IMG/VR virus record: IMGVR_UViG_646311924_000007
Coordinates: 32,001-96,000 of that record
Origin: a virus
Taxonomy: Duplodnaviria; Heunggongvirae; Uroviricota; Caudoviricetes
DNA length: 64,000 bases
Reading direction: 5' to 3' (one strand)
A model generated the notes under the pieces. That model ran no database searches and was not told the DNA's origin. It saw only the letters and a list, made by a program, of their open reading frames with translations. A program made the translations under genes and the position numbers. Shown in pieces: positions 32,534 through 34,902 of the stretch. How positions within the stretch are numbered: the first letter of the stretch is position 1; every line of letters starts with the position of its first letter.

Positions 32534-33904
32534 GTGCTAATGTCTGCATCCCCTCTTGAATCCATGCCAAATTCCCTTAGTGCAGAACAAGCTGTACTTG
32601 GTGGCTTAATGCTTGATAACTGCCGCTGGGATGAAGTTGCAGATCGTATAGTTGCTGATGATTTTTATACCAGTGCTCATCGTGAAATTTTCAGTGAGAT
32701 GGAGAGGTTATTAAGTCATGGCAAACCGATTGATTTGATAACACTTGCTGAAGCACTTGAACAGAACGGTAAATTAGAACGCGCCGGTGGTTTTGCGTAC
32801 CTTGCGGAGATGTCAAAGAACACGCCCAGCGCGGCAAATATTTGTGCTTATGCGGATATCGTTCGTGAACGCGCGGTTGTTCGTGAAATGATTTCCGTCG
32901 CAAATGAAATAGCTGAAGCTGGATATGCGCAGGATGGCAGGGGCAGCAATGAATTGCTGGATATGGCCGAGCGCCGCGTTTTTGAAATAGCTGAAAAACG
33001 ACAAAAGAGCGGTAGTGGTCCAAAAGATATCGCCAGCATTCTCGATGCAACGGTATCTCGCATAGAAGAGTTGTTTCAGCGACCGCATGATGGTGTAACG
33101 GGGCTTGATACCGGATTTACCGATCTCAATAAGAAGACGGCAGGACTTCAGGCGTCCGATCTCATTATTGTCGCCGCCCGCCCATCGATGGGGAAGACTA
33201 CGTTTGCGATGAATCTCGTCGAAAATGCCGCAGTCCGTAACGATAAGCCCGTATTGGTTTTTAGCCTTGAGATGCCGAGCCACCAACTGATGATGCGCTC
33301 ACTGGCTTCTCTTGCACGCGTTGATCAGACTCGTATTCGAACAGGGCAACTTAACGACGAGGATTGGGCGCGGGTTTCTGGCGCAATGGGGATTCTGTTG
33401 GACAAGCAGAATATTTTTATTGATGACTCAAGCGCCCTGACACCTACAGAGCTTCGTTCCCGCGCTCGTCGTGTTTATAAAGAAAATGGTGGTTTGAGCA
33501 TGATTATGATCGACTACCTGCAACTTATGCGCGTCCCCGAGCTGCAAGATAACCGAACGCTGGAAATTGCCGAGATTTCTCGCTCACTGAAGGCTTTGGC
33601 GAAGGAATTACAAGTACCGGTGGTGGCATTGTCACAACTTAATCGATCGCTTGAACAGCGTGCGGACAAACGACCGGTAAATTCAGATTTACGTGAATCA
33701 GGAGCAATTGAGCAGGACGCAGACCTGATCATGTTTCTGTATCGCGACGAAGTTTATCACCCGGATAGCGAAATGAAGGGCATTGCCGAGGTAATTATCG
33801 GAAAGCAACGAAATGGCCCAATTGGCACGGTGAGATTGGCTTTTAACGGCCAATACTCACGGTTTGATAACTATGCTGGTGCTGACTGGCAAGAGGATTA
33901 TTAA
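32534..33904 (+). CDS. ban: DnaB-family replicative helicase
   Basis: 456 aa; Walker A PSMGKTTFA, Walker B and C-terminal DnaB motifs (GKQRNGP). Confidence 0.9.
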   Translation: MLMSASPLESMPNSLSAEQAVLGGLMLDNCRWDEVADRIVADDFYTSAHREIFSEMERLLSHGKPIDLITLAEALEQNGKLERAGGFAYLAEMSKNTPSAANICAYADIVRERAVVREMISVANEIAEAGYAQDGRGSNELLDMAERRVFEIAEKRQKSGSGPKDIASILDATVSRIEELFQRPHDGVTGLDTGFTDLNKKTAGLQASDLIIVAARPSMGKTTFAMNLVENAAVRNDKPVLVFSLEMPSHQLMMRSLASLARVDQTRIRTGQLNDEDWARVSGAMGILLDKQNIFIDDSSALTPTELRSRARRVYKENGGLSMIMIDYLQLMRVPELQDNRTLEIAEISRSLKALAKELQVPVVALSQLNRSLEQRADKRPVNSDLRESGAIEQDADLIMFLYRDEVYHPDSEMKGIAEVIIGKQRNGPIGTVRLAFNGQYSRFDNYAGADWQEDY

Positions 33905-34902
33905 TGCAATGGAATGAGGAAAAGCCGATGAACATCCTGATCATTGGGCGAAAATTTGAAGCTATCAGTGATGTGAAAACATATACGGAAATGTGGGCTT
34001 ACAACCTGGCCTGCGCCTTTAGTGAGGCAGGGGTAACATTGCAATTCCATCGTCCATATTCCCCCGGCGTCGAAAGCCCGGAGGATTATGTTGAAGCTGT
34101 GTTGACCGCTGCGACCTCGTGTTCTGCGAAAGCCATTTTAGCGCCAGGATTGCGGTATTTTACTACGGTGCCCAGGGAAATAGGCGTGCAACTGCGTCGT
34201 CGATTCACTGGATGGGTAGCCCAGGTATACGACGGTTCTATGCTGGATTCGGCACCAGTCGATATTACTTTTACTGTCCGCGATGATACCTGGCGGTACC
34301 TGGATAATCCCGGCAGGTTAGAGCGTCATAATCGCTTTAACAAACATGTTGGATGGGCAGCGAATCAGGATCTGTTCCATCTGGAAACCAAAACAGACGA
34401 TGTTCTGCGTATTTTTGTAGACCACGCTGCATTTGATGTTAGTGGGTTTGATCACTCCTTAAGTATCCTTATGAACCTTCAGCGTCTGACCGTTCCGTAT
34501 GAGGCCAGAACGTTGACCGATGACGGATTGATTACCATTGATCCGGGGAATATATCGGTAACCCCATACAGACGGACGCCGGTACCAGCAACCGAATTTG
34601 CAGCTGAATTGCGTAAGAGTGACGTGTTTATCGTTACGCATCCCGAAAGCCTTGGATTAACTGTACTTGAGGCGGCAATGTGCGGGGCGTTGGTATTAAC
34701 GCCTCCCGATTGTCTTCCGCCAGATCGCCTGGCTTTGGTGAACCATATGGTTATCAAGTCGCGGATTGATTGGGATGAGGTTATTGCTCGCGTTGATCGC
34801 GTGAAAAATGCTGAAAAGGTCCAGTGTCACACCTGGTCGGCAATTGCGGAAAAGATGCTTGAGACGTTTGTCACGCAGAAACCGTCGCGCGGTAACGGAT
34901 AA
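33904..34902 (+). CDS. glycosyltransferase-like protein (GT-B C-terminal motif)
   Basis: Overlaps ban stop (TAATG); C-terminal DVFIVTHPESLGLTVLEAAMCGALVLTP resembles family-1 glycosyltransferase sugar-donor motif. Confidence 0.45.
   Translation: MQWNEEKPMNILIIGRKFEAISDVKTYTEMWAYNLACAFSEAGVTLQFHRPYSPGVESPEDYVEAVLTAATSCSAKAILAPGLRYFTTVPREIGVQLRRRFTGWVAQVYDGSMLDSAPVDITFTVRDDTWRYLDNPGRLERHNRFNKHVGWAANQDLFHLETKTDDVLRIFVDHAAFDVSGFDHSLSILMNLQRLTVPYEARTLTDDGLITIDPGNISVTPYRRTPVPATEFAAELRKSDVFIVTHPESLGLTVLEAAMCGALVLTPPDCLPPDRLALVNHMVIKSRIDWDEVIARVDRVKNAEKVQCHTWSAIAEKMLETFVTQKPSRGNG

Follow-up and report, generated by a model that had tools for sequence, protein, structure and literature searches.

What is a glycosyltransferase-like gene doing behind a replicative helicase gene? 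The question is raised by a 64,000-nucleotide stretch of a viral genome (IMG/VR record IMGVR_UViG_646311924_000007, positions 32,001 to 96,000; hereafter the window, with coordinates counted from its first nucleotide), in which a 332-amino-acid open reading frame (ORF) at 33904-34902 (+ strand) follows the helicase gene ban. An initial annotation proposed that this ORF carries a GT-B-type donor-binding motif, that it is translationally coupled to ban, that it is unusual relative to phage P1, where humD was said to follow ban, and that its product might modify either DNA or a cell-surface structure. We find that the ORF is almost certainly the orthologue of P1 dbn, with a GT-B glycosyltransferase fold. 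We further propose that dbn is part of a phage glycan module, together with pmgO, pmgP, and pmgQ, that has an acceptor other than DNA; for this statement as a whole, identity and fold included, we judge the case evenly balanced.

The ORF is present as first described, but it is not unusual relative to P1. The gene that follows ban there is not humD: in P1 (AF234172/NC_005856), P7, RCS47, and the window alike, the order is ban, dbn (or glt), and a convergent gene 5, and as judged by alignment nothing is rearranged at this locus, which has the ordinary P1 arrangement. The humD gene does lie far away in the window, at 55685-56074, beside doc, which is its normal P1 neighborhood. The name dbn stands for "downstream of ban," and the gene has been annotated in P1 since 2004 as a possible glycosyltransferase (the GenBank note on AAQ14048.1 reads "function unknown, possible glycosyltransferase"); it is labelled glt ("putative glycosyltransferase") in P7 and "putative glycosyltransferase, Dbn" in RCS47, and the RefSeq name of the protein is "glycosyltransferase family 4 protein." The window Dbn is 96% identical to P1 Dbn (96.3% by tblastn) and 96-99% identical to the P1, P7, and RCS47 orthologues, and PHROG 2518 (unknown function) spans its full length (residues 1-332 of 332; E = 7e-239). 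With the same flanks and the same stop/start overlap, the differences among these phages are allelic only, and the window allele is identical to that in the Escherichia coli 2013C-4081 plasmid NZ_CP027575.1. About 3 kb of DNA (32534-35600) is 97.6-99.2% identical to P1, P7, RCS47, SJ46, and other punaviruses, with 97.8-99.2% for the ban-dbn-5 region of the first three, and a 24-kb stretch of the window is alignable to the same phages; by these alignments, the window is a P1-like phage-plasmid. We considered a recent foreign origin of dbn, and its guanine-plus-cytosine content (0.494, against 0.479 for the window) gives no sign of one. Minus-strand ORFs within dbn are all 92 amino acids or shorter and unsupported, and Rfam has no RNA family inside or beside the gene.

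The donor-binding motif is borne out by several lines of evidence, although the profile search agrees only in part: the Pfam family Glycos_transf_1 (PF00534) matches Dbn residues 229-315 with E = 1.5e-5, but at 25.0 bits, below the gathering cut-off of 26.4. Two further related Pfam families also match below threshold, all three within residues 219-315, and some distant Dbn relatives exceed the cut-off (P0099 at 29.9 bits and P0151 at 28.4 bits). The match contains an EX7E motif, E248-SLGLTVL-E256, in which E256 is invariant and E248 is at least 90% conserved in an 86-sequence family alignment. An AlphaFold2 model built from 18 sequences (predicted local distance difference test score 89.6; predicted template modeling score 0.86) has two alternating beta/alpha domains, Rossmann-like and with a cleft between them, as in GT-B enzymes; a strand at residues 168-172 is followed directly by the D173-H174 pair. 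Foldseek searches of the Protein Data Bank (PDB) returned GT-B enzymes only, with GT4 members leading (GlgM at 1.7e-9, tetrahydrobiopterin glucosyltransferase, BshA, PimB′, and GtfC), and the best match among predicted viral structures (BFVD) is a Tupanvirus glycosyltransferase (template modeling score 0.77-0.80; E = 9e-19). Dbn thus resembles GT4 enzymes such as PimA, BshA, MshA, WaaG, and GlgM in its two-Rossmann fold and the position of EX7E, but it is short (~324 residues), has only 10-15% identity to any solved glycosyltransferase structure, and lacks recognizable basic phosphate-binding residues. From sequence and model together, Dbn is predicted to be a soluble GT-B enzyme with two domains, a retaining glycosyltransferase of the GT4 type, whose ~324 residues may be preceded by an eight-residue N-terminal extension. 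It belongs to a small, distinct family, which forms 377 clusters at 50% identity in a set of 1.84 billion representative proteins. A profile search of PDB sequences gave marginal glycosyltransferase matches (E = 0.17-0.8), and a match of the Dbn profile to KtrA (E = 5.7e-5) looks spurious and was taken as generic Rossmann similarity. An NCBIfam search with Dbn gave nothing meaningful, and PADLOC has no match for Dbn, PmgO, PmgP, or PmgQ.

What Dbn might act with is suggested by its relatives outside P1. Homologues with 40-59% identity are found in a 95-kb Citrobacter plasmid, in lambdoid-type contigs that carry GpA terminase, gpW, and portal genes, and in E. coli phages EP_H11 and IME392. None of those in the non-P1 mobile elements examined adjoins a helicase gene, and by this comparison the link of dbn to a replication operon is specific to the P1 lineage and incidental. 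The homologue lies in a cluster of overlapping ORFs belonging to PHROG 4603 ("alpha-2,3-sialyltransferase"), PHROG 2111, Dbn, and PHROG 1962 ("glycosyltransferase"), and a tblastn search with the neighbors of Dbn against the window identified segments at 40894-41457, 41397-42011, and 42694-42909 plus 44205-44672, which are pmgO, pmgP, and pmgQ, 6-10 kb from dbn. The homologues of all four genes are contiguous in contigs L005, L094, L095, and L096, where those of pmgO are no more than three genes from those of dbn; in a Citrobacter-type plasmid (L004), homologues of PmgP and PmgQ lie at a distance of 5 kb from that of Dbn, and L093 has PmgQ only. In environmental contigs L141, L144, and L152 the Dbn gene adjoins a GT8-like gene, and in L146 the two are ~0.7 kb apart. 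At each of the 15 non-P1 loci where the Dbn homologue has at least ~30% identity, an MptE-like gene, a GT8-like gene, or both occur no more than 6 kb away, in most cases next to it. Of the GenBank phage records, 22 have a Dbn homologue, and all 22 also have a PmgQ homologue, which is present in only 31 of 50,697 records overall. The association of Dbn with PmgO, PmgP, and PmgQ, proposed from gene context, appears to be new. We found no description of it in the searchable literature, where our searches met with no functional study of dbn or the three pmg genes beyond two essentiality screens and one transcriptome mention. "Putative morphogenetic" has been the label of PmgO, PmgP, and PmgQ for twenty years, without a phenotype.

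The three putative partners also look like glycan enzymes. PmgO and PmgP match the Pfam MptE-like family (PF01973) with E = 6e-5 and 3e-4, respectively, both below the cut-off; they share G-x-GPS and G-x-D motifs with bacterial MptE-like proteins, with which the GSGPS motif of PmgO aligns, and PmgP homologues cluster with dbn homologues. For PmgQ, a profile built from its homologues finds GT8 structures (GT-A, retaining), first Skp1 alpha-galactosyltransferase (E = 3e-7) and then glycogenin and LgtC, and a DLD (DxD) motif is invariant among the homologues. The same kind of pairing recurs in bacteria: an MptE-like gene lies directly upstream of a Dbn-like gene on chromosome 3 of Brucella pseudogrignonensis, beside an ABC-2 permease, an ABC ATPase, and a large group 1 glycosyltransferase, and in metagenomic contig L136. 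The two genes are arranged likewise in a Colwellia sp., where a Wza-type exporter, an MptE-like/WaaZ-like protein, and other glycosyltransferases are encoded beside them. A profile search of genome contigs with the 18-sequence Dbn alignment found three loci only. In the Brucella and Colwellia loci, where Dbn identity is 38-43%, the pair is as in the phage clusters, but the bacteria add exporters (ABC-2/ABC or Wza) and further glycosyltransferases. The phage sets have no initiating transferase, flippase, or exporter, and because of this we predict that the glycan would be built on a pre-existing acceptor. Dbn would have no role in replication and would be one of four sugar transferases, with PmgO, PmgP, and PmgQ, that assemble a short glycan from host nucleotide sugars, the four genes being contiguous in other temperate phages and scattered in P1.

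Dbn could instead act alone, unrelated to PmgO, PmgP, and PmgQ, as a single-step transferase on a small molecule or host protein, with the clustering reflecting shared moron hot-spots. Such a role fits the P1 layout, in which dbn is 6 kb from the pmg genes and in another operon, and it fits the relatives with less than ~30% identity, which have no MptE-like or GT8-like neighbors; some relatives carry a fused methyltransferase or other domain, and many GT4 structural neighbors, including BshA and tetrahydrobiopterin glucosyltransferase, act on small molecules. However, the genes are found side by side, their ORFs overlapping, in several phage backbones that are unrelated to one another and again in bacterial loci, and PmgQ accompanies Dbn in all 22 phage records with a Dbn homologue despite its rarity in the database; we regard solitary action as improbable. 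The fusion partners of the distant relatives are uninformative apart from one methyltransferase domain.

We note two further settings of distant Dbn-like sequences. Stenotrophomonas jumbo phage RAS14 (L097, 4590-6248) and phage CM1 code for a 552-amino-acid protein whose C-terminal domain is Dbn-like (27% identity over residues 130-323), and in both a PmgQ homologue lies ~12 kb off. Metagenome contig Ga0172375_10001066 (L154, 6300-8182) has two tandem distant Dbn-like genes among radical-SAM/SPASM, methyltransferase, and further glycosyltransferase genes, a different and larger glycan-modification cluster.

The position of dbn directly downstream of a replicative helicase gene invites a role in DNA metabolism, with Dbn glycosylating phage DNA against restriction as the T4 DNA alpha- and beta-glucosyltransferases do. 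Dbn has no specific sequence similarity to those enzymes, no structural similarity to them beyond what GT-B proteins share in general, and no Pfam match to the T4 glucosyltransferase families at E-values up to 10. To our knowledge, P1 lacks the hydroxymethyl-base pathway that T4 has, and it is not known to make hydroxymethylated bases able to accept a sugar, which counts against DNA as the acceptor. The linkage to ban is missing in every other lineage, and the bacterial homologues lie in polysaccharide-export loci. P1 deletions of dbn, pmgO, pmgP, and pmgQ show normal type I restriction on EcoA, EcoB, and EcoK hosts, which are the type I hosts only (PMC9024508, Supplementary Table S3). Of the two targets first suggested, DNA is thus disfavored by the normal restriction of the dbn deletion and by the setting of the homologues, and we consider it scarcely credible.

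The other target, a cell-surface glycan, is possible, and glycosylation of a virion protein is an equally open alternative. GT4, GT8, and WaaZ-type enzymes build the lipopolysaccharide (LPS) core of enterobacteria, and the LPS core is the P1 receptor. The location of bacterial Dbn homologues in polysaccharide loci favors an envelope acceptor, which would perhaps be a host glycolipid, for instance the LPS core, put together on the cytoplasmic side of the inner membrane. Alternatively, the same four enzymes could decorate a capsid, sheath, tube, or fiber protein, giving O-linked glycans on P1 particles. The late promoter LPpmgL precedes pmgO-pmgQ, which are located among morphogenesis genes, and in lambdoid contigs L005 and L094 the cluster is followed directly by the genes for the small and large terminase and the portal, but sites beside late or terminase genes are equally typical of morons. 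The Tupanvirus glycosyltransferase is the best viral structural match of Dbn, the best PmgQ matches (Skp1 alpha-galactosyltransferase and glycogenin) extend protein-linked glycans, and expression would be lytic rather than in the lysogen; yet the bacterial homologues are in polysaccharide rather than protein-glycosylation loci, a P1 virion proteome study makes no mention of glycosylation (no occurrence of "glycos"), and the P1 deletions form normal plaques (PMC9024508). We hold the virion acceptor as a tentative alternative that is rather unlikely to be correct; taken pairwise, envelope glycolipid and virion protein are nearly balanced, and we lean slightly to the envelope.

Comparable sets of phage or viral glycosyltransferase genes, co-expressed with structural genes, serve to glycosylate mycobacteriophage virions and giant-virus fibrils. 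Freeman and colleagues are said to have described the mycobacteriophage gene sets in 2023. Homology to Dbn is known for the fold only, the hosts are different, and no glycosylated P1 protein is known. Mycobacteriophage virion glycosylation gene sets are mentioned in PMC11256854. The Gtr serotype-converting glucosyltransferases have no specific sequence similarity to Dbn; they work in membrane GT2/GtrA/GtrC sets that lysogens express, and Dbn by contrast is a predicted soluble GT-B enzyme behind a C1-repressed promoter. We speculate, with real doubt, that the module was captured from bacterial polysaccharide loci and serves in P1 and unrelated temperate phages for lytic-phase decoration of either the receptor-bearing LPS core or the virion.

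When Dbn is made can be predicted from the layout of the operon (Table 1). At its head lies a bivalent C1 repressor operator, Oban, which corresponds to Obanab of the P1 annotation; the window has eight matches to the C1 operator consensus, against 0.03 expected. No terminator was found between ban and dbn, and the hairpin between dbn and gene 5 (-19.7 kcal/mol; z = -3.6; 0 of 200 shuffles fold equally well), overlooked by a simple terminator scan, is a probable bidirectional intrinsic terminator. Because the operator lies upstream, no terminator precedes dbn, and the hairpin follows it, dbn would be co-transcribed with ban from the C1-repressed ban promoter and give a lytic-phase product. The P1 record also predicts sigma-70 promoters within ban, which are unverified predictions.

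Translational coupling to ban, as first proposed, is plausible. The ban stop codon TAA (33902-33904) shares one base with the dbn ATG (33904-33906), as in the P1 record. However, a second in-frame ATG at 33928, residue M9, has its own GAGGA, and M9 is the start position in 12 of the 15 full-length aligned homologues outside the P1-like group. We compared this junction in 84 P1-like loci, of which 80 are IMG/VR contigs, one is a genome contig, and three are the annotated phages P1, P7, and RCS47. The ban stop and the first dbn ATG overlap in 76 (stop TAA in 74, TGA in two), and the junction is identical to that of the window in 74. The other eight (L084, where it lies at 7702-8004, and L086-L092) have a 100-amino-acid ORF (PHROG 12809, unknown function) between ban and dbn, at the equivalent of 33904-33928 in the window; it begins at the overlapping ATG (ATGCAA...) and ends in a stop that overlaps the M9 ATG, which is the dbn start in these loci. 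This ORF has no Pfam or PADLOC match. The eight extra N-terminal codons of dbn look like an in-frame relic of this upstream ORF, and the AlphaFold2 model is of low confidence only at residues 1-9. Either ATG may be used, so that translation would proceed by coupling at the overlap or from the nearby second ATG, and the overlap is perhaps not the only or main start.

Is dbn functional at all? A decaying, functionless passenger would be consistent with the genetics of P1: in-frame deletions of dbn, pmgO, pmgP, ppp, and pmgQ yield infectious virions with normal plating (PMC9024508), and CRISPR interference shows dbn, pmgO, pmgP, and pmgQ to be non-essential, with normal plaques (PMC10695390). Disrupted copies are also on record. 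In the P7 reference (AF503408), codon 23 from M9 is TGA rather than TGG (equivalent to 33994-33996 in the window), which is why the P7 "Glt" is annotated from an internal start and is shorter, at 287 amino acids. In the P1-like metagenome contig ERZ1027261 NODE_22 (L153, 81.7 kb), dbn is in three reading-frame fragments (7857-8492), with pmgO and pmgP intact. The sub-threshold Pfam score would also suit decay. However, the M9-start ORF is intact and exactly 324 codons long in 82 of the 84 P1-like loci, and among 59 distinct alleles the mean synonymous divergence (dS) is 0.095 and the nonsynonymous (dN) 0.0115; the mean dN/dS of 0.12 shows that dbn is under purifying selection. Catalytic-type residues are invariant across the family down to 22% identity, and dbn is found in 470 PLSDB plasmids, of which 432 keep it at at least 80% coverage, mostly in Escherichia with some in Salmonella, Klebsiella, and Shigella. 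We regard the passenger explanation as very improbable. The P7 stop codon could be either a natural knock-out or a sequencing error.

The four-gene set is not fully intact in the window, where IS629 splits pmgQ. The element has orfA at 42953-43279 and orfB at 43276-44166, with an ALIL frameshift pseudoknot at 43234-43350 (Rfam). In silico excision of IS629 with one GAC copy restores an intact 233-amino-acid PmgQ, which points to a recent insertion. With pmgQ split, the proposed glycan module of this particular element is probably crippled.

Several observations weigh against the proposed module. For Dbn as a glycosyltransferase, besides the score below the Pfam cut-off, the alignment is only to profile positions 83-169, the second half of Glycos_transf_1; the usual phosphate-binding Gly-Arg...Lys-Gly region is not recognizable, and in the model the Asp-His pair appears to sit where basic diphosphate-binding residues would be expected. 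No structure of the family has been solved, the best PDB sequence match to the glycosyltransferase region has E = 0.17, and none of its members has a known donor, acceptor, or enzymatic activity. For the association, ~18 of the 22 Dbn phage records are P1-like, so that shared ancestry inflates the co-occurrence and there are few independent lineages; several phages have PmgQ alone, and Cronobacter phage JK004 (L169, 93.8 kb) has PmgP and PmgQ homologues with Dbn undetectable by tblastn, a counter-example to strict co-occurrence (genes at 12334-13714, PmgQ 75% identical). In P1 itself the four genes are in two separate transcription units ~6 kb apart, and C1-repressed expression is ill-suited to classical lysogenic conversion of the cell surface. 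We know of no reported P1 glycoconjugate. Natural knock-outs occur, namely the P7 nonsense codon, the fragmented dbn of ERZ1027261 NODE_22, and IS629 in the window pmgQ, and single deletion of any of the four genes is without a plaque phenotype (PMC9024508).

Table 1. Positions in the window of dbn, its flanking and regulatory features, and the proposed partner genes.
Feature	Coordinates	Strand	Basis
Oban, bivalent C1 repressor operator at the head of the ban operon	29310..29337	.	One exact and one 2-mismatch consensus match, overlapping, inverted
ban, DnaB-like replicative helicase gene	32540..33904	+	ORF listing; P1 coding sequence alignment; 98-99% identical to ban/dnaB of P1, P7, RCS47
Shine-Dalgarno-like AGAGGA, 6 nt before ATG 33904	33892..33897	+	Read from sequence
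dbn long form, 332 aa, ATG overlapping ban stop (ATTAATG)	33904..34902	+	ORF listing, PHROG 2518, P1 Dbn identity
Shine-Dalgarno-like GAGGA, 7 nt before ATG 33928	33916..33920	+	Read from sequence
dbn core form, 324 aa from M9 (MNILIIG), conserved family extent	33928..34902	+	Homologue starts
Codons D173-H174, invariant Asp-His ending first C-terminal-domain strand	34420..34425	+	86-sequence alignment; AlphaFold2 model
Codons of EX7E (E248...E256), GT4-type donor-binding signature	34645..34671	+	Inside Glycos_transf_1 match
Hairpin, 11-bp stem, 5-nt loop, flanking A and T runs, between dbn and gene 5	34923..34949	.	Folding
Gene 5 (baseplate), convergent with dbn	34949..35581	-	ORF listing, P1 alignment
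pmgO, MptE-like/sialyltransferase-like, 220 aa, proposed Dbn partner	40837..41499	+	PHROG 4603, E = 4e-74
pmgP, second MptE-like protein, 208 aa, proposed partner	41397..42023	+	PHROG 2111, E = 7e-132
pmgQ 5′ part, GT8-like GT-A glycosyltransferase, cut by IS629	42694..42898	+	tblastn/blastn against P1 pmgQ
IS629 (IS3 family, 1310 bp) in pmgQ, 3-bp target duplication GAC	42899..44208	+	99.8-100% identical to Shiga toxin (Stx)-phage IS629; ends and duplication read from sequence
pmgQ 3′ part, first 3 bases the duplicated GAC	44209..44708	+	Intact 233-aa PmgQ on in silico excision of IS629 and one GAC copy

Other features of the window differ from P1 or from its annotation. Upstream of ban, at 29992-30238, there are three tRNA genes (Asn, Tyr, and Thr), against Asn and Thr only in P1 and RCS47, the extra one being an 87-nt tRNA-Tyr gene at 30072-30158. 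A 275-amino-acid gene at 31329-32156 replaces P1 tciA-tciB-tciC upstream of ban, likewise in RCS47 and NZ_CP027575.1; it is annotated as SPFH domain-containing in NZ_CP027575.1 and as "putative serine protease" in RCS47. The pap gene (46346-46852), an "acid phosphatase" in P1, matches PHROG polynucleotide kinase families (phrog_415; E = 6e-57), which suggests that Pap processes nucleic-acid ends and is not a general acid phosphatase; we had considered Pap as a membrane PAP2 phosphatase with a link to lipid carriers, and rejected this because it is polynucleotide-kinase/phosphatase-like.

If the proposal is true, the P1 pmg genes and dbn would have a shared role, in receptor masking, exclusion, or particle shielding. 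Should the four genes form one pathway, P1, so widely used in E. coli genetics, would become one of the few phages known to build their own glycans. The pathway might then affect adsorption, superinfection exclusion, the immune recognition of particles, and how wide a host range P1-like plasmids have. Resistance genes are commonly carried on P1-like phage-plasmids.

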